Shown piece after piece: positions 5,727 through 14,983 of a stretch of DNA of 64,000 bases. The first letter of the stretch is position 1. Each line of letters begins with the position of its first letter. This stretch comes from Candidatus Daviesbacteria bacterium (GTDB lineage: Bacteria > Patescibacteriota > Microgenomatia > Daviesbacterales > UBA10151), in assembly GCA_016187025.1 (NCBI GenBank), contig JACPKM010000001.1, forward strand, positions 245,688 to 309,687, given 5' to 3'. The position numbers were made by a program, and so were the translations under genes. The notes under the pieces were generated by a model, which was given only the letters and a program-made list of their open reading frames with translations, was not told the DNA's origin and did no database searches.

Positions 5727-6413
5727 ATAGATATCCACAAATCTTGCACTCCAGCCGGCTGTGCGGGCATCATTAAATCCTAAGTCTATAATATTTCCTT
5801 TGATTGCTCCACCAGTGTCACCGGCAACAGCTTCTCCATACCCCGGGATATAGACTTTAGATCGCATTGGTATAACTTTCGGATCAACTGCAATTACTCC
5901 TTTTCCAGCCCTCATTCCAATTGCAGTCCACTCATCACAACCTGGGCATTTTGAATCATAGTGTGTTGCATAAACTCTCATTTTCTTCCAGTATTTAATC
6001 TCTCCATCTGCAGTGCTCAAAGTTTTCCAAACAATTTTTGTTCCTCTCGATATTTTTTTATCTTTTGCTGGGGTAGTATCTATTGATACAACCTCCCGGT
6101 TATATTCTTTGTTGTCATAGTAGGTAATCTTGATTATCTTTACTTTTTTCCCAGCTCCTCCTTCTTCTAAAACTTTTTCTTCTCCTGCTTCTGTTTCTGG
6201 GTCGTCTTCGTAAACGGTTTTTTTGGGAATAATCTCAACATTCTCCTCTAGTTTGTCTGTAAATCTAGATTGAGTTTCAAGTGGTTGATATGCAGGAAGC
6301 TTATGATCACCTTCCTCGATACTGGCCTGAACTGGAGGTGGGAAGATTGGCCAGATGAATCTGGCTGTTAAAAGCAAAACTGCTATCAGAAAAAATCCCC
6401 AGTATCGGTCCAT
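5718..6413 (-). CDS. G5-domain plus 3D (RlpA/MltA-like double-psi beta-barrel) domain cell-wall protein
   Basis: N-terminal TM, acidic linker, G5-like segment (KKVKIIKITYYDNKEYNREVVSIDTTPAKDKKISRGTK), C-terminal 3D domain (ATHYDSKCPGCDEWTAIGMRAGKGVIAVDPKVIPMRSKVYIPGYGEAVAGDTGGAIKGNIIDL). Confidence 0.6.
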   Translation of the reverse strand: MDRYWGFFLIAVLLLTARFIWPIFPPPVQASIEEGDHKLPAYQPLETQSRFTDKLEENVEIIPKKTVYEDDPETEAGEEKVLEEGGAGKKVKIIKITYYDNKEYNREVVSIDTTPAKDKKISRGTKIVWKTLSTADGEIKYWKKMRVYATHYDSKCPGCDEWTAIGMRAGKGVIAVDPKVIPMRSKVYIPGYGEAVAGDTGGAIKGNIIDLGFNDARTAGWSARFVDIYLL

Positions 6414-8281
6414 TAGCTATTTAGCCAGTCATCTGCATCAATCTGACTGATATCAGAATCGATTATATCATCTGAATTCTTAAAATCACTGTAATTGGTG
6501 TTGCTGATTATTAGCTTCTCTGGAATATCAGACAAAAACCTGGAAACCAAGTTATTTGATCTTTGGCCAAAATATAACCTTTGTCTTGTATAGGTTAAAA
6601 AAAGCTTTTCCTTTGCCCTTGTGATGCCAACATAGCAAAGTCTTCTTTCTTCTTCCAGTTCATTCGGATCAAGCATTGAACGGGAATGGGGAAATAACCC
6701 CTCTTCCATTCCTATCATAAATACAATGGGAAACTCCAGTCCCTTTGCACTGTGGAGAGTCATTAAAGTCACAGCATTCACTTCCTCTTTTCCTTTTAAA
6801 GCTTTTTTAGGCAGGTTACCATTTTCAACCAGCGCGGCATTTTCTAAAAATTCAATTAAATTAGGAAACTCTTCCGCAACAGAAAGTAGCTCTTTGACAT
6901 TTTCTACTCTGCCTTTTCCCACCTCTGTTCCATCATCTATATATGCTAAATACCTGGTTTTTGATAAAGCTTTTTCAAGCAGTTCTCTGGTTGTATAAGA
7001 TGTTGGATTTATAGCAATTTCTTGGTAAATTTCTAAAACCTGAGAAAGTCTACCTTTGCCAATTTTTTCAGCGCGTTTTAGGGCAACAGAATCTTGAGGA
7101 TTTTGCAAAAGCCTAAGGTAGGACAGAATGTCCTTAATCTCTTTTCTTTCATAAAATGAAACCCCGCCAAATAACTTATATGGCACACCAGACCTTAAAA
7201 ATTGTTCTTCCAAAGCACGGGATTGTGCATTAGTTCTATAAAGCACTGCGTAATTCGACAACCTTTTTTTGTCTATTTGGGAAAGAATAAATAGCGCTTC
7301 TTCTACCTCATTTCTGGTTTCAACTATCTCAATTTTTTCTCCGCCATCTTTGTCAGTCCACAGTTTTAAAATCGGATGAGTTCTATTTTTGGAAATGATT
7401 GCATGGGCTGCATCCAAAATGTTTTGAGTAGAGCGGTAGTTTTGTTCCAGATAGAAAATTTTTGCGCCGGGATAATCCTTTTCAAAATTAATTATATTTC
7501 GGTAGTCTGCGCTTCTGAATGAGTATATCGACTGGCTGGCATCTCCAACCACACAGATATTTTTGTGACGGTTTGCTAAATACTTGGAAATTAGGTATTG
7601 CGCCGGGTTTGTATCCTGGTATTCATCTATTAAGATATATTGAAATTGTATTTGGTAGCGTGTAAGAATTGTTGGTTCTGCCTGAAACAGGCGGATGGTT
7701 TTTAATAAAAGATCGTCAAAATCTAAAGCCTGGTTTCTTTCTAAAATCTTTTGATATTCCAAATATATTTTGGCTACAGTTTCCTGGAAAAAGCCTCGGG
7801 CATATTGAGGATATTCGGTTGCAGAAATCAGTTCGTTTTTTGCACCAGAAATAGTGCTTCTTACAGCATAAGGTGAGGTTTTTTGAATAGGGATTTTTAA
7901 ATTACCCATGGCTTCTTTGATAGCATCCAGTGCGTCTTTTTCATCATAGATTGCAAAACCCGGGGGAAGCCCCAACACTTGTCCTTCACGGCGAAGTATT
8001 TTGGCACAAAATGAATGAAATGTTCCCATAACAGGTAAAGTGGGTAAATCGCCGATTAATTTTTTAATTCTTTTAATCATCTCGCCGGCTGCTTTATTGG
8101 TAAAAGTTAAGGTTAAGATATTTTCTGGGGAGATCTTTTTTTCAGCAATAAGATATGCAACACGATATGTTAAGACCCTCGTTTTTCCGGATCCTGCCCC
8201 GGCCAAAATTAAACAAGGTCCTTCTGTATTTTTGACAGCTTCCTGTTGTTCGGGATTTAGATCATCAAGAAGAGCAGACAT
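6413..8281 (-). CDS. pcrA: ATP-dependent DNA helicase PcrA/UvrD family (start probably at M13, MSALLDDLNPEQQEAV; ORF track extends to 8317)
   Basis: Walker A LILAGAGSGKTRVLTYR, helicase motifs throughout (DEYQDTN, VGDASQSIYSFR, TLHSAKGLEFP, GITRAKE). Confidence 0.85.
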   Translation of the reverse strand: MSALLDDLNPEQQEAVKNTEGPCLILAGAGSGKTRVLTYRVAYLIAEKKISPENILTLTFTNKAAGEMIKRIKKLIGDLPTLPVMGTFHSFCAKILRREGQVLGLPPGFAIYDEKDALDAIKEAMGNLKIPIQKTSPYAVRSTISGAKNELISATEYPQYARGFFQETVAKIYLEYQKILERNQALDFDDLLLKTIRLFQAEPTILTRYQIQFQYILIDEYQDTNPAQYLISKYLANRHKNICVVGDASQSIYSFRSADYRNIINFEKDYPGAKIFYLEQNYRSTQNILDAAHAIISKNRTHPILKLWTDKDGGEKIEIVETRNEVEEALFILSQIDKKRLSNYAVLYRTNAQSRALEEQFLRSGVPYKLFGGVSFYERKEIKDILSYLRLLQNPQDSVALKRAEKIGKGRLSQVLEIYQEIAINPTSYTTRELLEKALSKTRYLAYIDDGTEVGKGRVENVKELLSVAEEFPNLIEFLENAALVENGNLPKKALKGKEEVNAVTLMTLHSAKGLEFPIVFMIGMEEGLFPHSRSMLDPNELEEERRLCYVGITRAKEKLFLTYTRQRLYFGQRSNNLVSRFLSDIPEKLIISNTNYSDFKNSDDIIDSDISQIDADDWLNS

Positions 8282-8328
8282 GGTGCATATCTTAACACCA
8301 GGACTAGCTTTTGACAAAAGCTAGGACA

Positions 8329-8479
8329 CCCGCTACTTACCACTTAGTCCAAAAGAAATTTATATCACGAAGAGGTCCTGCGACGTCTATCAAATTGCGC
8401 ATACAAAACAGCCTCCCGTACATCAGTAAGGGAATGCCCTAAGGATTCCAGTATACTGGCTCCTATATTTTCACCTTCC
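8329..8479. repeat. left copy of a ~150-bp imperfect direct repeat (about 85% identity to 9865..10017); contains the 3' end of the Clp_N gene plus downstream spacer
   Basis: Direct sequence comparison of the two stretches (shared ...atcacg(a/g)agagg..ctgc(c/g)a...tatcaaat(t/c)gcgcatacaaaacagcctcccgtaca...ggctcctatattttcaccttcc). Confidence 0.7.
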
Positions 8480-9021
8480 AGTACCAGACCTAAGAGAAGG
8501 TGTTCCCCTGTGGTCTGTAGATGTTCTAATCTTTGTGCCGCATATCCTGCATGTTCTATAACTGTTCTTGCTCGTGGTGTCAAACCAGGAAACCCTTGTG
8601 TAGGTCTATCGCCTCGTTCAATCATAAATTCTACTGCACTGTGAACCTTTGCTTTATTCACACCAAGATCACTAAGAATTGGTGCTGCCGGGCATCCTTC
8701 GTGAAGCATTGCCAAAATTAAATGTTCAGTACCTATATATTGATGATTAAAGCTTTTTGCTACTTCAAAACAATCAAGTGTAAGTGTTGCTTGGAGATCA
8801 AAAGAAAAATCCCTTCCTCGAAATTCCGGATATAAAAAATCAAATAACTGCCTTACGGCTTCAGGATCTCTGTCAGTAGTAGTTGCTAAAAGCTCTTCCT
8901 GCCGAAATTTTCTATAAGTACCACGAGCTGCCTCAAGCTGCCCTATCATTAACTCTCTCTCGCCTTGAGGAATATCCCCTCTAGTAAGTATCCTATCACC
9001 AGCTTTGATCCATTCTCGCAT
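8365..9021 (-). CDS. Clp N-terminal-domain repeat protein (double Clp_N repeat, no AAA+ module)
   Basis: Two Clp_N repeats (YIGTEHLILAMLHE... and TGEHLLLGLVLEGENIGASIL); local GC about 48-50% versus about 35% for neighbours. Confidence 0.65.
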   Translation of the reverse strand: MREWIKAGDRILTRGDIPQGERELMIGQLEAARGTYRKFRQEELLATTTDRDPEAVRQLFDFLYPEFRGRDFSFDLQATLTLDCFEVAKSFNHQYIGTEHLILAMLHEGCPAAPILSDLGVNKAKVHSAVEFMIERGDRPTQGFPGLTPRARTVIEHAGYAAQRLEHLQTTGEHLLLGLVLEGENIGASILESLGHSLTDVREAVLYAQFDRRRRTSS

Positions 9022-9094
9022 ATGTAGTCGAATGCTAACTCACTATAAGTCATTTGTCAATACTATGCCATATATCTTGTTTTATTGTACCTTC

Positions 9095-9195
9095 GAAATA
9101 CCACGAGTGTAAACTCGTGGATGAAGAAGGTTCCGACAAAGTCGGACTCACCGAAGGTGAGAACAAGAGGATACCACATGCGTTAGCTTGTGGTA
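9095..9195. ncRNA. candidate structured RNA / leader: cluster of four GC-rich hairpins
   Basis: Stem-loops at 9101-9120 (CCACGAG-TGTAAA-CTCGTGG), 9133-9145 (CCGAC-AAA-GTCGG), 9147-9161 (CTCACC-GAA-GGTGAG) and 9174-9193 (CCACA-N10-TGTGG); lies between the Clp_N gene start (minus) and the brnT promoter (plus); no T-tract, no match to tRNA/tmRNA/SRP consensus by eye. Confidence 0.25.
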
Positions 9196-9249
9196 GATTC
9201 ATTTACCTTCTAGTCTTTCCGTAGAGAGCTTTACTATGTAAGTACGTAT

Positions 9250-9278
9250 TGACAAGATTATATTTGTGTAGTATGGTA
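9250..9278 (+). promoter_or_regulatory. sigma70-type promoter for brnTA (TTGACA-17-TATGGT)
   Basis: TTGACA at 9250-9255, 17-nt spacer, TATGGT at 9273-9278, about 16 nt before the brnT ATG; the TTG start used by the ORF track is the -35 hexamer itself. Confidence 0.4.
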
Positions 9279-9293
9279 TATACATATTTCTGG

Positions 9294-9590
9294 ATGAGAA
9301 CCGATAAAGATGTTTTTGAATTTGAGTGGAATAACGGAAACAGCGGGAAAAATAAAAAGCATAAAGTGGAAGACAAAGAAGCCGAGGAAGTATTTTTTGA
9401 TGAGAACAAAGTAACTTTTCCTGATAGTCTCCATTCCACAGACAATGAGGAACGTTTAAGAATAATTGGTAAAACTAAAAAAGGAAGGTTACTATTTATT
9501 GTCTTTACCAAAAGAGGTCAAAAAATTAGAATCATTTCAGCAAGAGATATAAACCGAAAGGAGGTGCCTCTTTATGAAAAAACCGCTTAA
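9294..9590 (+). CDS. brnT: BrnT (DUF497) ribonuclease toxin of type II TA system (start at internal ATG, MRTDKDVFEFEWN...)
   Basis: Characteristic FEFEWNNGNSGKNKKHKV N-terminus and RIISARDINRKEVPLYE C-terminal segment of the BrnT family; overlaps brnA by 17 nt. Confidence 0.7.
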   Translation: MRTDKDVFEFEWNNGNSGKNKKHKVEDKEAEEVFFDENKVTFPDSLHSTDNEERLRIIGKTKKGRLLFIVFTKRGQKIRIISARDINRKEVPLYEKTA

Positions 9591-9834
9591 ACTACCAAAG
9601 TTTAAAAATGAAGATGAAGAGAGAGGCTTCTGGGCGAAGATAGATTTGTCTAAATACTATGAGCCTTCGGATATGGAAAAGGTTAGTTTTCCTAATTTGA
9701 AACCTACCAGCAGGTCTATTTCCATTAGAATTCCGGAATATCTTTTAAATAGAGTCAAAGAAAAGGCTAATGAGATTAATGTACCCTATCAATCTTTAAT
9801 CAAAGATTATATTAAAAGGGGTATATTATCCTAG
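9574..9834 (+). CDS. brnA: BrnA antitoxin (RHH/CopG-like)
   Basis: C-terminal ISIRIPEYLLNRVKEKANEINVPYQSLIKDYI matches the BrnA ribbon-helix-helix consensus (ISLRLP...L...A....VPYQSLIK); translationally coupled to brnT. Confidence 0.7.
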   Translation: MKKPLKLPKFKNEDEERGFWAKIDLSKYYEPSDMEKVSFPNLKPTSRSISIRIPEYLLNRVKEKANEINVPYQSLIKDYIKRGILS

Positions 9835-9864
9835 TAAATGGGTTGTAGCATCTGAAAAAGAACA

Positions 9865-10017
9865 CCCATTACTTACAACTGATCCTAAAGAAACTTACAT
9901 CACGGAGAGGTTCTGCCGATACTTCTATCAAATCGCGCATACAAAACAGCCTCCCGTACACTAACAGGGGAATGTCCTAAGGATACCAGTATACAGGCTC
10001 CTATATTTTCACCTTCC
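9865..10017. repeat. right copy of the ~150-bp direct repeat; on the minus strand encodes a decayed Clp_N C-terminal fragment (..SLGHSPVSVREAVLYARFDRSIGRTSP*)
   Basis: About 85% nucleotide identity to 8329-8479; minus-strand translation parallels the C-terminus of the intact Clp_N protein (..SLGHSLTDVREAVLYAQFDRRRRTSS*). Confidence 0.65.
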
Positions 10018-10037
10018 CCACTATATACGAAAAAAGA

Positions 10038-10805
10038 TCAAATGATGAACTGGCTGACAGTTGTTTCTAAAGACTTTTTATCAATCCGGGTTTTCAGTTT
10101 TTTTAACCAGGTTAAATCAACACAAAACTGTTGAGATATTTCTTCAGGGGAAATCTGCTTCTCAGTCAGCAAAAACAAGATTGGGTCTATTTTATCCCAG
10201 GTTAGAGCGATATTTTCCGGATAGAGTAACCCCTGGTAATTAGTAAGAGGTATGAATTGACCGGGAATATTTAGAAATTGGGCTAGATCATAAAGTTCTG
10301 ACTTGTACAATGAATAAAAAGGCATAAGATGTCCATAAAAACCTTCAGGTCTGTTGCCTAGTAGTCTGTCGCTTTTATCAAAGGTGTCAACTATTACAGC
10401 TTTCATATTCTCCGCTTGAATAGCTGAATGATAATTTATAAAACGTTGATAGAATCTTTTAAGGCTTGCAGGGGTATGCAGTTGATAAGCAGAAATTTCA
10501 GATTGATAAGCTGCACCGCGTTTTAAAATAAAAGTTTCCAGCCCGGAATATTTACAGAGCTCGACCAAGCTATTTGTTTCATCGGTTCCAAAATCAAAAA
10601 TCATTGCCACAATGTTTTCTTTCGATGCTTGTCTGAGTAACGCTCCGGCAACGATAGAATTAATGTCTCCGGATATCCGCACCATGATTTTGTGATGGCC
10701 GTGTTTTGACAAGTACTGGTAATAGTGTTGCAGATAATCAGTTAATTTGGTAACCAGTTGCTCATCAACTGGTTTTTTATATTTAAACAGATTGAGCAGG
10801 TCCAT
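10038..10805 (-). CDS. nadE: NAD+ synthetase (NadE, NH3-dependent) family protein with degenerate PP-loop
   Basis: PP-loop-like RISGDINSIVAGALL (SGGxDS reduced to SGDINS) and the NadE C-terminal pattern VIVDTFDKSDRLLGNRPEGFYGHLMPFYSLYKSELYDLAQFLNIP. Confidence 0.5.
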   Translation of the reverse strand: MDLLNLFKYKKPVDEQLVTKLTDYLQHYYQYLSKHGHHKIMVRISGDINSIVAGALLRQASKENIVAMIFDFGTDETNSLVELCKYSGLETFILKRGAAYQSEISAYQLHTPASLKRFYQRFINYHSAIQAENMKAVIVDTFDKSDRLLGNRPEGFYGHLMPFYSLYKSELYDLAQFLNIPGQFIPLTNYQGLLYPENIALTWDKIDPILFLLTEKQISPEEISQQFCVDLTWLKKLKTRIDKKSLETTVSQFII

Positions 10806-10819
10806 ATCAGGTACTAATA

Positions 10820-11761
10820 TTGTATACTAATTTAATGGATGATAAACTGCCCCCGCCAATCAAAATTACCCCAAACTCCCCGGATATACCTAATCCCCCA
10901 AATGACGATGACCCCATATTTGAGGCTAAAATCAATAACCCCTTTAGTAAATTTTTTAGCTGGATCAAAGATTTCCTTAAAAAACAAAGTAATATAACTA
11001 TTAAAATACCCATTATTGGTATTATCATGGGATTATCAGGTCTGGGGATCGGATGGGGCACAGGATACAACTGGGGTTTTAATACTGCACTTGCTAAACT
11101 ATTTCCCAACTCCTCTCCTGTTTTTCATAGGGCAGTTTCTTTAGAAGGAGTAATTCAAAAATCTGCTTCAGCGCAATTTTATCTAAAATCAGAGGATAAC
11201 TTATGGATTTTGAAACCAAAATCCCCAATCACCCCGGCAATCATAGAAACCTCAGTTGAAAAACAAGTGAAAGTTTTAGGTAATTTAACCAAAGAAGCAA
11301 ACGCTGTTGAAGTCTCAGAAATTATCCCGCTTGAGTCTCCCCAACCTACCCTAACGCCCCTTACCTCCCTTGTAAATTCTTATTCCTCTACTTCTTCTAA
11401 CCCTTCTAATCCCCCTGACTCTGAGCTTAAATTACCGGATCTCTTCACAGGGCTGCAATGGGTATCCACCCAAAAAAAGGTTTTAGTTTTTACCTCGGGT
11501 AAAAGAAGGATGGATGTGGAAGGGTTTCACATTGAATCATCCCAGCTTACTTCTTTCCCTCAGGATTTTATTAACTACTATATTACTGAGCTTAAAAACA
11601 AAGGCTTTAAAGAAACTCTAAATTCTATTAATCCTGAAGGGATAACAGTAACTTATTCCAAAGATGACCTCTTTTTAACTTTTGGAGTCAAAAATATCTA
11701 TCAAGGCAAAGCAGATAAAAAACAACTTGCAGGTTATGTTGCCTATCTAGAACATAATTAA
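10820..11761 (+). CDS. hypothetical membrane protein with Pro-rich N-terminus and extracellular domain
   Basis: 313-aa ORF, TM IKIPIIGIIMGLSGLGIGWG, S/T/P-rich linker; no recognisable family. Confidence 0.4.
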   Translation: MYTNLMDDKLPPPIKITPNSPDIPNPPNDDDPIFEAKINNPFSKFFSWIKDFLKKQSNITIKIPIIGIIMGLSGLGIGWGTGYNWGFNTALAKLFPNSSPVFHRAVSLEGVIQKSASAQFYLKSEDNLWILKPKSPITPAIIETSVEKQVKVLGNLTKEANAVEVSEIIPLESPQPTLTPLTSLVNSYSSTSSNPSNPPDSELKLPDLFTGLQWVSTQKKVLVFTSGKRRMDVEGFHIESSQLTSFPQDFINYYITELKNKGFKETLNSINPEGITVTYSKDDLFLTFGVKNIYQGKADKKQLAGYVAYLEHN

Positions 11762-12147
11762 GTCTTTGGGGTAAAGAGCTTTATCCCCTTGATATTCTCA
11801 AAATCTTTCCGGTTTAATGTAGCCAGTTCTAATTTGTGGAAAAGAGTAGTGGCGGCAATAATTGCATCGGAAAGGTTTCTGCCATATTTTGCCCTAGTTT
11901 CCCCGGCTTTCTCTGAAATCTCTTCTTCTAATGGCAAAATTTTGATATCCGAAAAAAGTGACTTTAATGTCTGCAAAGCCTCTGTTTTCTCCCATATACT
12001 TTTTCCAGAAAAGCATTCTGTATGAGTAATAATGGAAGCATAAAGCGGAATTTGGCTTTGTTCTAACTTGATCTGTATTGTTTTACGTTTATCTTTTTGA
12101 CGCAGGAAATCTATAATAATGGAAGTATCAACTAATACGCCATTCAT
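11758..12147 (-). CDS. vapC: PIN-domain ribonuclease toxin VapC
   Basis: N-terminal LVDTSIIIDFL with conserved acidic residues; 129 aa; start overlaps the stop of the upstream RHH gene. Confidence 0.7.
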   Translation of the reverse strand: MNGVLVDTSIIIDFLRQKDKRKTIQIKLEQSQIPLYASIITHTECFSGKSIWEKTEALQTLKSLFSDIKILPLEEEISEKAGETRAKYGRNLSDAIIAATTLFHKLELATLNRKDFENIKGIKLFTPKT

Positions 12148-12404
12148 TACCAGTTATATTTTTTTAATCTTTTTTCCAGATCCTTTCGAATTTTTTTGTA
12201 TTCCTGATAATCCTTATCAGTAAACCAGTCGGTTTTCAAATTTAACAGCATTTTAATCCTATCCTTTTTAGACATTTTTTCCTTACTGCCGACCTTCTCC
12301 CTAATGATTGCAGAGAAACTTTTTCTTTTTTTGGCTGCTTCCTCTTTGAGTCTTAAATAATCTTCTTCAGGCAGTCTGATGTTAGTTACCACATAGTTAC
12401 TCAT
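12147..12404 (-). CDS. vapB: ribbon-helix-helix antitoxin VapB (start at MSNYVV...; the ORF-track N-terminal extension is rejected)
   Basis: NIRLPEEDYLRLKEEAAKKRKSFSAIIREKV is a typical RHH/CopG segment; immediately upstream of and coupled to vapC. Confidence 0.55.
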   Translation of the reverse strand: MSNYVVTNIRLPEEDYLRLKEEAAKKRKSFSAIIREKVGSKEKMSKKDRIKMLLNLKTDWFTDKDYQEYKKIRKDLEKRLKKYNW

Positions 12405-12572
12405 ACAATACCATTGTATCATGATATTGAAATTAGTCAATATTAAGTCTTGTCCAATACAAGATGAGCATGAAATAACAGGTTGTTCTAATACAAGAAG
12501 AGCATAAAAAACCGCAAACACAAAACGAAAGCTTTACAATTTATAGCAATCATAGTATCATCTACGGTTATT

Positions 12573-13409
12573 ATGGGCCTAAATACAGTTGAAAGTGATA
12601 CTTCAGCAGTCAGAAATTCTGGATATAGGAGTTTAGCGGGATTTCTCAACCCAATCGTAGAAAAAGGGCAGGCACGTTTCCCCGGGGTCAAAGCATGGCA
12701 CATTACAGCTACTGGGATAGCTTTGACAATAGCAGGAACCGAGCTTGAAGAATATCAAAATCGAAGAGGCAAACATACAACATCGCTAGACTTGCTATCC
12801 GGTGCATTAACAGTTCTGGGAGTAGTTTGTGATCTTTTAGATGGTAAATGGGCAAGACTGGCAAGAAGTGAGATGTGGGATCCTGTAAAAAGAGAGGATA
12901 ATGAAAAATGGGGACAGGCGATAGACCCGGCTGCAGATGGGGTTATAGAAGCGCACCGGGCGTTTGCTGGGGCAGTAACAGCCTGGCATTTAGGTGATAA
13001 AGAAGGCTTTAATGCTGCAATGAGAAATATGGAAAGTACCAATCGGCCCAGGACTGCAAAAGCTTTTGTAGGGGCTTTCGGTAAAGCTACACCTGAAAGC
13101 TACCCCGTTTTTGATCCGAGATTCCTCGGCACAAGTTTAGGCAGGAAAGTACCTAACTTTCTCAGTACATATGTTAGAAAGCTTAGAGGATGTCCTATAC
13201 AGTTTATGATGGATTCAAGGGTAGCTAATGCAAATGATGTGGTAACAGCTGAGCGTTTATGGATGGTAGTTAAGCCTGCGAAAAGATTGAATGGTAAGGA
13301 GGCTAAACATGCCCAGGCTAGACTAGTGGTACTTGGAGCAGAAACCTTGGCTATTGCAGGTGCTGCATACCTTGTACGAAAAACCCTTACCTTTCCAGAG
13401 AATAAGTAG
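12573..13409 (+). CDS. GC-rich hypothetical membrane protein with partial CDP-alcohol phosphatidyltransferase-like motif
   Basis: DLLDGKWAR...GQAIDPAADG resembles DG-x2-AR...G-x3-D-x3-D; hydrophobic segments; GC about 47% versus about 35% background. Confidence 0.35.
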   Translation: MGLNTVESDTSAVRNSGYRSLAGFLNPIVEKGQARFPGVKAWHITATGIALTIAGTELEEYQNRRGKHTTSLDLLSGALTVLGVVCDLLDGKWARLARSEMWDPVKREDNEKWGQAIDPAADGVIEAHRAFAGAVTAWHLGDKEGFNAAMRNMESTNRPRTAKAFVGAFGKATPESYPVFDPRFLGTSLGRKVPNFLSTYVRKLRGCPIQFMMDSRVANANDVVTAERLWMVVKPAKRLNGKEAKHAQARLVVLGAETLAIAGAAYLVRKTLTFPENK

Positions 13410-13437
13410 CTTCCCTTTCAGGGAACGCAGGCATCTG

Positions 13438-13560
13438 TTATTTATTTCCTGTAACCAGATACGATGCTTGCCCTTCAACAGCTGCGGCTAGCACCATATT
13501 GTCATCAGGATCATTTTTTAAGCCATATGGGCAAAATATAATAATTTCTATAACCGCTAT
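13438..13560 (-). pseudogene. 3' fragment (40 codons) of a PIN-family toxin gene
   Basis: Minus-strand translation IAVIEIIIFCPYGLKNDPDDNMVLAAAVEGQASYLVTGNK* matches the conserved C-terminus of PIN-family toxins; preceded by an in-frame stop and has no start. Confidence 0.4.
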
Positions 13561-13589
13561 TTAACACTACATCATAATATATTAAGGTA

Positions 13590-13618
13590 TTGACATGTAG
13601 TATTATGTAGTATAATAT
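13590..13618 (+). promoter_or_regulatory. strong sigma70-like promoter upstream of fic (TTGACA-17-TAATAT), overlapping a direct repeat TGTAGTAT-TA-TGTAGTAT
   Basis: TTGACA 13590-13595, 17-nt spacer, TAATAT 13613-13618 (alternative TATAAT 13611-13616); 40 nt before the fic ATG. Confidence 0.45.
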
Positions 13619-13657
13619 AACAATCATGAGCAAGAAACTTGCCCCGCTCAATGCCAT

Positions 13658-14620
13658 ATGAACAATAAGTTAAGTTTATTGACACAAAAGAAACAAAAGC
13701 TAGATGGTTTTAGACCATTACCTCTAGAATTGGTTAAAAATCTTGATGAATGGTTTAAGGTAGAACTTACCTACACCTCTAATGCCATTGAAGGTAATAC
13801 TCTAACCAGGGCAGAGACAGCCCTAGTAGTAGAAAAAGGTATTACCGTACAAGGTAAGAGTTTAACAGAACATTTAGAGGCGACTAACCATGTTGATGCT
13901 TTGGAATATGTAAAAACACTGGTAGGCAAAAAAAGGCAAGATATAACAGAACAAGATATTTTAGATATAAACAGGCTAATCTTAAATAAGATTGAGGCTG
14001 TTAATGCGGGTAGATATAGGACACAACATGCACGGCTGACTGAAACTGATGTAATTTTACCCAACCCAGTTAAAATTCCAGAGCTTATGGAGGAGTTTAT
14101 GGGATGGCTGGTGGGTGATAATTCAGACCATGTAGCAAAGATAGGGGCTGATGCTCACTTCAAGTTAGTTAGTATTCATCCATTCTCGGATGGGAACGGT
14201 AGGACTTCCCGACTTCTCATGAACTTACTGTTTATGCAAGAAGGCTACCCACCTGCTATAGTCCGTAAAGAAGATAGATTAGCATATATAAACTCCTTGG
14301 AGAAAGCTCAGAAAGGCGGTGGGTTAGATGATTTTTATAATCTAATTTATGAAGCAGTTGACCGCTCGCTGGATATTTATTTAGAGGCACTCCAACCAGA
14401 AAGAGAGAGTTTAGCAGAGCCTATCCCAGCTCAGAGGTTTTATACTACAGATGAGGTGGCAAGATTACTTCAAGTAGATCCAGAGAGTGTTAGAAGATAT
14501 GTCAGGAGAGGGATACTGCGGGCAGTTAAGTTGGGTGGTAAGTTTATTAGAATAGACAAAGCTGATTTAGACAGGTTTATTGAGCAATTAAAAACAACTA
14601 GGACTGGACTTACGCAATAA
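13658..14620 (+). CDS. fic: Fic/DOC family protein with N-terminal inhibitory helix motif and C-terminal excisionase-type HTH
   Basis: Fic motif HPFSDGNGRTSRLLMN; N-terminal SNAIEGN ([S/T]xxxE[G/N] alpha-inh, class II-like); C-terminal YTTDEVARLLQVDPESVRRYVRRGILRAVKLGGKFIRIDKADLDRF resembles excisionase/MerR-family HTH. Confidence 0.75.
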   Translation: MNNKLSLLTQKKQKLDGFRPLPLELVKNLDEWFKVELTYTSNAIEGNTLTRAETALVVEKGITVQGKSLTEHLEATNHVDALEYVKTLVGKKRQDITEQDILDINRLILNKIEAVNAGRYRTQHARLTETDVILPNPVKIPELMEEFMGWLVGDNSDHVAKIGADAHFKLVSIHPFSDGNGRTSRLLMNLLFMQEGYPPAIVRKEDRLAYINSLEKAQKGGGLDDFYNLIYEAVDRSLDIYLEALQPERESLAEPIPAQRFYTTDEVARLLQVDPESVRRYVRRGILRAVKLGGKFIRIDKADLDRFIEQLKTTRTGLTQ

Positions 14621-14725
14621 CTAACTGATAACTGGTATGAAAAACTAGGCTTTACTCTGGCTGCTAACCTTTTTAAGAGATAAGTAGTAGACAGAGGTTG
14701 ACGGCAGTGTTAATATTTACTCCTT

Positions 14726-14983
14726 ATGATTAAACTTTTAGACTTTTGGGCTCCGTGGTGTGGTCCCTGCAGAATTATGAACCCAGTTTTGGAAGAGATA
14801 GAAAAAGAATTGCAGGGAAAAATAGCAGTGGAAAAATACAATGTGGATGAAGCTCAAGAGATAGCCTCCAAGTATGGGGTAATGAGTATTCCTACCTATG
14901 TTATAGAAAAAGATGATAAAGAGGTGGGAAGAAAAATTGGTGTCACCTCAAAAGCGGACCTTCTAAAATTACTGCAACAGTAA
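14726..14983 (+). CDS. trxA: thioredoxin (short, 85 aa; lacks the usual N-terminal ~20 residues)
   Basis: WCGPC active site, cis-Pro segment MSIPTYVI; in-frame stop just upstream precludes a longer N-terminus. Confidence 0.7.
   Translation: MIKLLDFWAPWCGPCRIMNPVLEEIEKELQGKIAVEKYNVDEAQEIASKYGVMSIPTYVIEKDDKEVGRKIGVTSKADLLKLLQQ

Follow-up and report, generated by a model that had tools for sequence, protein, structure and literature searches.

A variable gene slot in a Candidatus Daviesbacteria genome holds a vapBC pair, a predicted CDP-alcohol phosphotransferase, a PIN_3 toxin remnant and a Fic-HTH_17 gene

Results

Genes and features of the stretch

We analysed positions 11758-14620 of a 64,000-nucleotide stretch of DNA (hereafter, the window) from a Candidatus Daviesbacteria bacterium (GenBank assembly GCA_016187025.1, contig JACPKM010000001.1, positions 245,688 to 309,687). 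Daviesbacteria are Microgenomates of the candidate phyla radiation (CPR). [quoted passage not shown] The PIN, RHH, PIN_3, Fic and HTH_17 assignments all pass profile searches.

Table 1. Features of the stretch, of the surrounding slot and of related loci (window positions unless a locus is named)
Feature	Position	Strand	Details
VapC-type PIN toxin, 129 aa	11758..12147	-	Pfam PIN (PF01850) E 8.8e-18, 65.5 bits, cut-off 23.6
VapB antitoxin, ribbon-helix-helix, 85 aa	12147..12404	-	RHH_1 22.7 bits, cut-off 20.5
vapB promoter-like site TTGACT-16-TACAAT, TG upstream	12413..12440	-	-10 overlaps palindrome TATCATGATA; ATG 8 nt past -10
Two 23-nt direct repeats between divergent vapB and 278-aa promoters	12453-12475 and 12487-12509		20/23 identical, 34 nt start to start
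Promoter-like site of 278-aa gene, TTTACA-17-TATCAT	12533..12561	+
Predicted stand-alone divergent CDP-alcohol phosphotransferase, 278 aa	12573..13409	+	PIP-synthase-like predicted fold, low hydrophobicity
GC-rich hairpin TTCCCTGAAAGGGAA, terminator-like	13411..13425		between convergent 278-aa gene and PIN_3 fragment
PIN_3 toxin pseudogene, last ~40 codons	13438..13560	-	translation IAVIEIIIFCPYGLKNDPDDNMVLAAAVEGQASYLVTGNK, then stop
ACTACAT, inverted copy of ATGTAGT, upstream of Fic -35	13566..13572	+	putative operator half-site; inverted repeats
Fic promoter TTGACA-17-TAATAT	13590..13618	+	holds tandem ATGTAGTAT at 13595-13603 and 13605-13613, 10 bp apart
Extra ~30-nt Fic leader with 11-codon upstream open reading frame	13626..13661	+	MSKKLAPLNAI, then stop; overlaps Fic ATG (ATATGA)
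Class II Fic protein with C-terminal HTH_17 (excisionase/MerR-like), 320 aa	13658..14620	+	Fic PF02661 E 2.9e-21; HTH_17 E 1.9e-15
UvrD/PcrA-like helicase, left backbone anchor	6413..8317	-	Pfam UvrD-helicase E 9e-90
Clp_N-domain-only protein, 218 aa, in slot	8365..9021	-	Pfam Clp_N E 1.4e-24
BrnT/BrnA toxin-antitoxin pair, in slot	9249-9590 and 9574-9834	+	BrnT_toxin E 7e-23, CopG_antitoxin E 9e-28 (Pfam)
NadE-like gene, in slot	10038-10805	-	Pfam NAD_synthase E 3.9e-12
313-aa protein, in slot	10820-11761	+	no Pfam match
trx promoter-like site TAGACA-17-TAATAT	14688-14716	+
Thioredoxin gene trx, right backbone anchor	14726-14983	+
L014 Fic flank repeat (also L007)	7897-7929 and 8924-8956		32 bp, 3 mismatches; Fpg-type zinc-finger coding segment
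L015 Fic flank repeat (also L010)	-85 from ATG, +13 from stop		34 bp, 1 mismatch; 3' end of pth
L015 pth 3' end, reconstructed uninterrupted target			GAACCCAATGAACTCCCCCAAGTAAAACACATGATTAAACAGGCGGTTGAGGCTGTAGAG
L016 Fic flank repeat			16 bp
L018 Fic flank repeat			31 bp, 4 mismatches
L025 Fic flank repeat			27 bp, 1 mismatch
HAD-fused 278-aa homologue loci with Tam41_Mmp37	L050 151-2597; L051 5001-7482

The stretch lies in a variable slot between a helicase gene and trx

The 2.9 kb are the right-hand part of a 6.4-kb variable gene slot (8318-14725). For comparison, synteny loci were gathered around homologues of the downstream tpiA gene. The order trx-ogt-tpiA-LCP is kept in four relatives (L034, L035, L036 and L043), whose triosephosphate isomerases are 61-64% identical to that of the window. 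In L034 and L035, a UvrD-like helicase gene starts 51 bp 5' of trx and the slot is empty, whereas in the window 6.4 kb separates the helicase, which is 80% identical to that of L034, from trx-ogt-tpiA. In the same slot, L036 carries a LAGLIDADG-like open reading frame (ORF) and a 157-aa ORF, and L043 carries a dihydrolipoamide-dehydrogenase-like gene (Lpd) and a vapBC pair abutting trx. The comparison confirms presence/absence polymorphism of the slot content among relatives and shows that the genes of the stretch lie outside the core backbone, in line with the accessory island of the earlier note. The spacing, 51 bp in relatives and 6.4 kb here, bears out an accessory slot, which extends further than that note had proposed.

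No tRNA was found in positions 1-22000 of the window, and a scan of six slot proteins and the 313-aa protein revealed no recombinase domain. Nor were flanking repeats found around the Fic gene, the outer edges of the slot not having been searched separately. With no integrase, tRNA or att-like boundary, the locus lacks the marks of a classical integrated island and is better described as a variable slot, probably made up of independent modules gained at different times. Its content appears not to be uniformly recent, as vapBC stands at the same position in L043 with identities near those of the flanking core genes. Specifically, the identities to L043 (71% for VapB and 60% for VapC) resemble those of the flanking core genes (62-75%), which argues that vapBC is an older resident. 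This is the most economical reading, and on it the 2.3 kb from vapB to the trx promoter, which contain the 278-aa gene, the PIN_3 remnant and Fic, would have been added later, in one event or more.

The Fic-HTH_17 protein and its conserved promoter

Fic-HTH_17 combines a class II Fic domain with a C-terminal HTH_17 domain that reaches 57.3 bits in PF12728 (cut-off 27) and 41.5 bits in the TIGR01764 excisionase domain (cut-off 28.8). The catalytic motif is H174PFSDGNGRTSR185; across 23 sequences with identities of 54-92%, its residues H, F, D, G, N, G, R and R do not vary. The inhibitory motif S41-N-A-I-E45-G46-N47, located ~130 residues N-terminal to the Fic motif, is invariant in the same sequences. 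Both this SxxxEGN helix and the excisionase-type HTH had been recognised in the earlier note. The HTH is conserved as strongly as the catalytic core, and only the linker varies. The family is very large, with more than 8000 proteins at E<=1e-10; the best 120 clusters are 76-92% identical. A literature search on Fic plus HTH_17, or on Fic in Patescibacteria, returned nothing specific.

Among solved structures, those nearest in sequence are FICD-type class II proteins (human FICD, E 1e-41) and BtFic, while the match to the SoFic structure in the PDB is weak (E 2.7e-4) and covers 50 residues. Two PADLOC models, PDC-S04 (E 1.8e-31) and SoFic (E 5e-28), match over the shared Fic core. Against the NCBIfam SoFic equivalog, the protein scores 27.4 bits where the cut-off is 550, which speaks against orthology to SoFic. 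In Fic enzymes of the FICD/HYPE type, the inhibitory glutamate acts as a switch between AMPylation and de-AMPylation. The Fic domain here, predicted to be glutamate-autoinhibited, would AMPylate or de-AMPylate a cellular protein once autoinhibition is relieved, for example by stress or phage attack; any role in defence would be a putative one.

The Fic gene is preceded by the TTGACA-17-TAATAT promoter described in the earlier note, and the tandem repeat indeed overlaps it, with copies starting at 13595 and 13605. Because promoter-like hexamer pairs are not enriched in the region (6 found, 8.6 expected), the support for this promoter comes from conservation in relatives and not from a motif scan. 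Specifically, TTGAC(A/T)-N(11-12)-GTAGT fused to a -10 element (ATAAAAT or ATAAT) is found upstream of Fic in 15 of 16 loci, and ACTAC is present in one to three copies upstream of the -35 element in 12 of 15. The Daviesbacteria copies, including that of the window, have two GTAGT copies 10 bp apart within the spacer instead. In L055, three tandem 10-nt units (AAATAGTGTT) follow the -35 element, within the last 35 nt before the Fic ATG, and replace the usual GTAGT motif; they appear to be a variant of the putative operator that keeps the 10-bp phasing.

Among relatives, the promoter motifs accompany the Fic gene, and gene-linked conserved motifs over the -35 and -10 elements suggest autorepression by the HTH. 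The HTH most likely binds the GTAGT/ACTAC motifs over its own -35 and -10, repressing Fic transcription. We infer this autorepression by analogy with CccR, which represses its own promoter via two 10-bp inverted repeats near -35 and -10 (PMC9755527), and with SoFic, which binds its own promoter and AMPylates EF-Tu (bioRxiv 10.64898/2026.07.09.737422). A third precedent is the binding of phased direct repeats by HTH domains of the BldC type (PMC5859096).

The Fic ATG lies about 8-15 nt past the -10 element in 13 of 15 promoter-bearing relatives. L046 and L017 have longer leaders, and the window has the extra leader listed in Table 1, which also contains a hairpin with a 9-bp stem at 13627-13650. 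In L046, whose Fic copy is 91% identical, a GAGGAG Shine-Dalgarno-like sequence occupies the leader position instead. In the intervals 12413-12404 (vapB) and 12556-12573 (278-aa gene), and in most Fic homologues, the -10 element lies 8-11 nt (up to ~15) before the ATG, with no Shine-Dalgarno sequence visible. Such short gaps suggest leaderless or near-leaderless mRNAs in these Microgenomates.

The Fic cassette and the PIN_3 remnant

The neighbours of Fic-HTH_17 differ in every relative examined. The gene is found after pth, beside an Fpg-type zinc-finger coding fragment downstream of an intact fpg, by the ATP synthase operon, after a peptidase S51 gene, convergent with leuS, and after a tRNA gene. 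In L022, the cassette begins just after an apparent tRNA 3' end (GGTTCGATTCC...CCA), ~60-130 nt before the Fic ATG (locus position 6001). Homologues with 65-78% identity occur in L016, L017, L019 and L024, on contigs binned into Gammaproteobacteria or Actinomycetota metagenome-assembled genomes; these are either mis-binned CPR contigs or cases of transfer between phyla. A scan of viral contigs gave one homologue only, so the Fic gene is not mainly phage-borne. On this single IMG/VR contig, L045 (134-1909, 6547-7215), an IS1595-type transposase adjoins the Fic-HTH_17 homologue, with a large serine recombinase and HTH_7 proteins nearby.

In 5 of 19 related loci, the cassette is flanked by direct repeats of the local target, 16-34 bp in length (Table 1). 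Under the same scoring, 132 mismatched pairs of upstream and downstream flanks gave a maximum of 12, compared with 16-31 observed. The lengths of the repeats and the exact ends of the cassette vary among loci. We know of no transposase or integrase class that fits flank duplications this long and variable, and they could result from homology-assisted or repair-mediated insertion. The cassette would be a single-gene unit of ~1.05 kb, composed of a promoter with operators and a Fic gene fused to HTH_17.

In the window, the cassette adjoins the PIN_3 fragment, which matches PF13470 at positions 90-114 of 115 (E 2.9e-7, 31.7 bits, cut-off 27), in agreement with the 40-codon minus-strand PIN fragment of the earlier note. 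Its frame beyond 13560 is full of stops and the homology ends at ~13560. The conserved Fic upstream region, marked by ACTACAT at 13566, starts where the PIN_3 homology ends. Inspection by eye of the minus strand downstream of Fic (14621-14725) showed nothing convincing for the missing N-terminal part. The fragment is a case of real decay. The toxin gene would have lost its first two thirds, the break being the left edge of the Fic cassette. On the simplest reading, the arrival of the cassette, or a linked deletion, removed these two thirds together with any antitoxin gene. At L054 (2399-2990), an RHH gene is followed by a degenerate, stop-interrupted PIN-like ORF directly upstream of the Fic cassette, echoing the remnant of the window.

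The 278-aa protein is a predicted CDP-alcohol phosphotransferase

The signature of the cytidine diphosphate (CDP)-alcohol phosphotransferases is D1xxD2G1xxAR...G2xxxD3xxxD4, as defined for PgsA1 (PMC6506517). The earlier note had seen a partial motif in the 278-aa protein; the signature is in fact complete, D87xxD90G91xxA94R95...G114xxxD118xxxD122. In a 60-member alignment of the family, R19, D87, D90, G91, G114, D122, G186 and R228 are invariant, and A94, D118, E126, G190, R191, N221 and R250 are nearly so. The profile check against PF01066 that the earlier note had called for has a divided outcome: the single protein stays below the cut-off, while PF01066 is hit at E<=0.01 by 43 of its 60 relatives. 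The profile of the family, for its part, matches the Mycobacterium tuberculosis phosphatidylinositol phosphate (PIP) synthase PgsA1 at E 1.4e-10, and by these indirect routes the protein is linked to CDP-alcohol phosphotransferases.

A word-indexed search had returned a single homologue (41% identity), located after ruvB on a short contig, and had made the protein look like an orphan. An exhaustive profile search with hidden Markov models overturned this view, yielding 151 cluster representatives (50% clustering) at E<=1e-3, 19 of them at E<=1e-30 and most of ~270 aa. The upstream region of the 41%-identical homologue in L001 shares AGCTTTACAATTT with the promoter region of the 278-aa gene. 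A profile of two sequences gave no PDB match, and the two-sequence AlphaFold2 prediction was unusable (pLDDT 46); redone with the 60-sequence alignment, the model has a pLDDT of 93.9. Its top Foldseek matches are PgsA1 and other PIP synthases (6h59, 6wm5 and 5d92), with a probability of 1.0 and a TM-score of 0.73-0.76 normalised on the target, at modest E-values (5.6e-3).

The description of the 278-aa protein as a membrane protein in the earlier note is weakly supported. The grand average of hydropathy (GRAVY) is -0.23, and at a Kyte-Doolittle threshold of 1.6 the protein has just two hydrophobic segments, residues 71-89 and 250-268; relatives have 0-2 such segments and a GRAVY of about -0.2 to +0.1. 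The GC content of the gene, given there as about 47%, is 44.8%, the highest of the 54 ORFs in the window (z 2.4). At third codon positions (GC3) it is 32.3% (z 1.0) and host-like. Because the excess comes from amino-acid composition, the high GC is no evidence of recent import.

The closest Daviesbacteria homologues (42-46% identity) carry an N-terminal haloacid dehalogenase (HAD)-like domain with a DxDxT motif and a weak Acid_phosphat_B match. In the two HAD-fused homologues whose contigs were inspected (P0131 and P0273), a gene for a Tam41_Mmp37-type phosphatidate cytidylyltransferase follows directly, and another relative (P0256) is a direct Tam41 fusion. The HAD fusion and the Tam41 neighbour argue, for those organisms, for phosphatidyl transfer from CDP-diacylglycerol followed by dephosphorylation, so that a phospholipid headgroup pathway in Daviesbacteria is possible. 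Since tblastn alignments begin 15 codons upstream of the ATG, we also considered the 278-aa ORF as the C-terminal stump of a HAD-fusion gene. This was rejected because there is an in-frame stop upstream, as well as vapB, and because stand-alone proteins of ~270 aa, P0002 among them, make up most of the family.

PADLOC gave no match for the 278-aa protein. Judged by its motifs and relatives, it appears to be a divergent but catalytically complete CDP-alcohol phosphotransferase and not a toxin or defence gene. The enzyme would most likely take a phosphatidyl group, or another substituted phosphate, from a CDP-activated donor and pass it to an alcohol acceptor. The gene, with its own promoter, would thus encode a lipid or envelope headgroup enzyme, with all four metal-binding aspartates present.

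The vapBC pair and its upstream repeats

The vapB and vapC genes are co-oriented, and the vapB stop overlaps the vapC start by 1 nt at 12147. The acidic residues D7, E44, D94 and D115 can be read from the VapC sequence. VapC and VapB are 60% and 71% identical, respectively, to their L043 counterparts, the former encoded at the same position beside trx. Public gene calls give a VapB of 124 aa from GTG 12521; because the L043 homologue begins with the same MSNYVV and the promoter position agrees, the true start is ATG 12404 and the 124-aa call is too long. VapC falls below the NCBIfam VapC equivalog cut-offs (NF047863, 41 bits against 140; NF047959, 37 against 80), and by these profiles the toxin would be PIN/VapC-type in the broad sense only. 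Neither VapB nor VapC has a match in PADLOC. The two genes would form an intact type II toxin-antitoxin pair in which VapC is predicted, from its domain, to be a PIN RNase and VapB most likely represses its own promoter.

The direct repeats that the earlier note had placed at 12456-12469 and 12492-12506 exist, with coordinates off by 3-9 nt; they are the 23-nt repeats of Table 1. Their 19-nt consensus occurs at only these two sites in the 64 kb, where 0.06 chance matches are expected, and none of 100 shuffles reaches two. The repeats lie upstream of the -35 element of vapB (promoter 12440-12413) and of that of the 278-aa gene (promoter 12533-12561).

Other contents of the slot

The Clp_N gene at the left edge of the slot encodes a Clp_N-repeat-only protein and has a GC content of 42.5%, the third-highest in the window; none is present between the helicase gene and trx in L034, L035, L036 or L043. 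The NadE-like gene and the 313-aa protein have no tblastn match in the slots of these relatives. The LAGLIDADG_3-domain ORF of L036 (6005-6817, minus strand), located in the helicase-trx slot, overlaps the helicase start. The TAGACA element upstream of trx is present in L043 too.

Discussion

We consider it likely that the stretch is part of a variable slot holding a vapBC pair, a CDP-alcohol phosphotransferase, a PIN_3 remnant and an autorepressed Fic cassette. A number of observations weigh against this explanation. The relatives used for synteny are distant, as their triosephosphate isomerase identities show, so gains are not strictly separable from losses. No direct repeats were found within 300 bp on either side of the Fic gene of the window. 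As this copy has no flanking duplication, its insertion into the PIN_3 gene is drawn only from the sharp end of the homology, and the duplications bear on the Fic family rather than on the window copy. The 23-nt repeats are absent upstream of vapB in L043 and may be unrelated to VapB. The 278-aa protein alone scores 15.3 bits in PF01066, where the cut-off is 22, and the protein and its family appear unusually polar for the superfamily, though the predicted fold is the six-helix PIP-synthase bundle. Furthermore, no Tam41 gene lies within the 64-kb window, where the 278-aa gene stands alone.

An alternative that builds on the earlier note reads the 2.9 kb as a graveyard or accumulation zone specifically for toxin and defence genes, with the GC-rich 278-aa gene as recent foreign cargo. 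In its favour, vapBC and brnTA are two intact toxin-antitoxin pairs within the slot, which also has one toxin remnant and a Fic gene matching PADLOC PDC-S04 and SoFic, and the 278-aa gene has the highest GC of the 54 ORFs. The accessory character, the toxin modules and one decayed toxin gene of that reading stand. However, the zone extends over 6.4 kb instead of 2.9 kb and is more mixed, with NadE-like and Clp_N genes among its contents; vapBC looks vertically inherited with its flanks, and decay is seen in only 1 of ~10 genes. The GC3 of the 278-aa gene is host-like. As its product is a predicted CDP-alcohol phosphotransferase whose catalytic residues are intact, the description 'toxin and defence zone' is too narrow, and we regard this alternative as improbable. 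Still less probable is a single acquisition of the whole of 8318-14725 as one integrated mobile element, either a genomic island or a prophage remnant. The segment is absent as a block from L034 and L035, and one IMG/VR contig places a Fic homologue beside a serine recombinase and an IS1595 transposase, but no integrase or transposase was found among the slot proteins scanned, no tRNA in positions 1-22000 and no flanking repeats around the Fic gene; moreover, L043 has vapBC by itself at this place, and the composition is host-like save for the amino-acid-driven GC of the 278-aa gene.

For the Fic protein, an alternative is a DNA-tethered modifier, in which the HTH puts the Fic domain on DNA to AMPylate nucleoid-bound proteins, on the pattern of Coxiella CbFic2. 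The latter belongs to class II, has a C-terminal HTH and shows AMPylation and de-AMPylation that are stimulated by DNA-induced dimerisation (PMC10628234), and in the Fic-HTH_17 family the HTH is under conservation as strong as that of the catalytic core. However, DNA binding by CbFic2 is non-specific and uses a different, DeoR-type winged HTH, whereas GTAGT/ACTAC is conserved exactly over the gene's own -35 and -10 in 12-15 relatives, which points to sequence-specific self-regulation; we give the tethered modifier little credence. Beyond the autorepressed Fic gene that we favour, a broader proposal combines the observations on the family. Fic-HTH_17 would be a discrete mobile cassette of ~1.05 kb (promoter/operator and one ORF), spreading among Microgenomates and beyond and landing in or beside genes, and PIN_3 would have been truncated by its arrival here. 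We put this combined proposal forward tentatively and think it rather unlikely. In its boldest version, the cassette's own movement may involve the excisionase-like HTH and perhaps also nucleotidyl transfer by the Fic domain.

Each component is of a known kind, and the region is an ordinary variable slot of the sort common in small CPR genomes. Follow-up is merited by the polar, Tam41-linked CDP-alcohol phosphotransferase family and by the apparent single-gene mobility of the Fic-HTH_17 cassette. Bacteria of this group are generally held to rely on hosts for lipids. The 278-aa family, with ~150 clusters of unusually polar predicted CDP-alcohol phosphotransferases and no Pfam model of its own, hints through its HAD and Tam41 links at phospholipid headgroup synthesis or remodelling in such bacteria. 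Fic-HTH_17 is among the most conserved and most scattered single genes in our analysis and has its own conserved operator-promoter, which may offer a tractable way to study self-regulated Fic enzymes and, possibly, single-gene mobility of a new kind.

Comparison with known systems

The pair at the left of the stretch resembles VapBC type II systems in three respects: the genes of the RHH antitoxin and the PIN toxin overlap, VapC shows the four acidic PIN residues, and a promoter-like site serves the pair alone. It differs in scoring below the VapC equivalog cut-offs and in having 23-nt direct repeats upstream of the -35 element and not over the promoter.

With the PIP synthases (M. tuberculosis PgsA1 and Renibacterium PIPS), the 278-aa protein shares the full signature, a family-profile match and a superposing predicted fold. 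It exceeds them in length by ~60 residues, its D2 and D3 are spaced 10 residues further apart, and the extra invariant residues of its family (R19, G186, G190-R191, N221 and R228) have no assignable counterpart. In particular, its GRAVY of -0.23 and two hydrophobic segments contrast with the six transmembrane helices of PgsA1.

Fic-HTH_17 has the N-terminal inhibitory helix SxxxEG and the canonical Fic motif of FICD/HYPE-type class II Fic proteins (also EfFic, CdFic and BtFic), but it has neither the TPR nor the membrane anchor of FICD/HYPE, carries a C-terminal HTH_17 domain and belongs to a tiny-genome bacterium. Like SoFic and CccR, it combines the Fic core HxFx(D/E)GNGRxxR and a C-terminal HTH in one polypeptide, with repeated motifs over its own -35 and -10. 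Whereas the HTH of SoFic and CccR is winged, that of Fic-HTH_17 is of the HTH_17 type (excisionase/MerR-like, TIGR01764); the Fic core is nearer the FICD/BtFic type than SoFic, and the putative operator includes direct copies with 10-bp phasing. The HTH domain shares the HTH_17/BldC-like fold of the small MerR-like BldC/Xis-type proteins (NCBIfam BldC, E 4e-5). On direct repeats, BldC forms cooperative multimers arranged head to tail (PMC5859096), and the window has two copies of ATGTAGTAT 10 bp apart, while L055 has three 10-bp-phased copies. Unlike BldC, the HTH domain here is fused to an enzyme, and its binding to these repeats is predicted.

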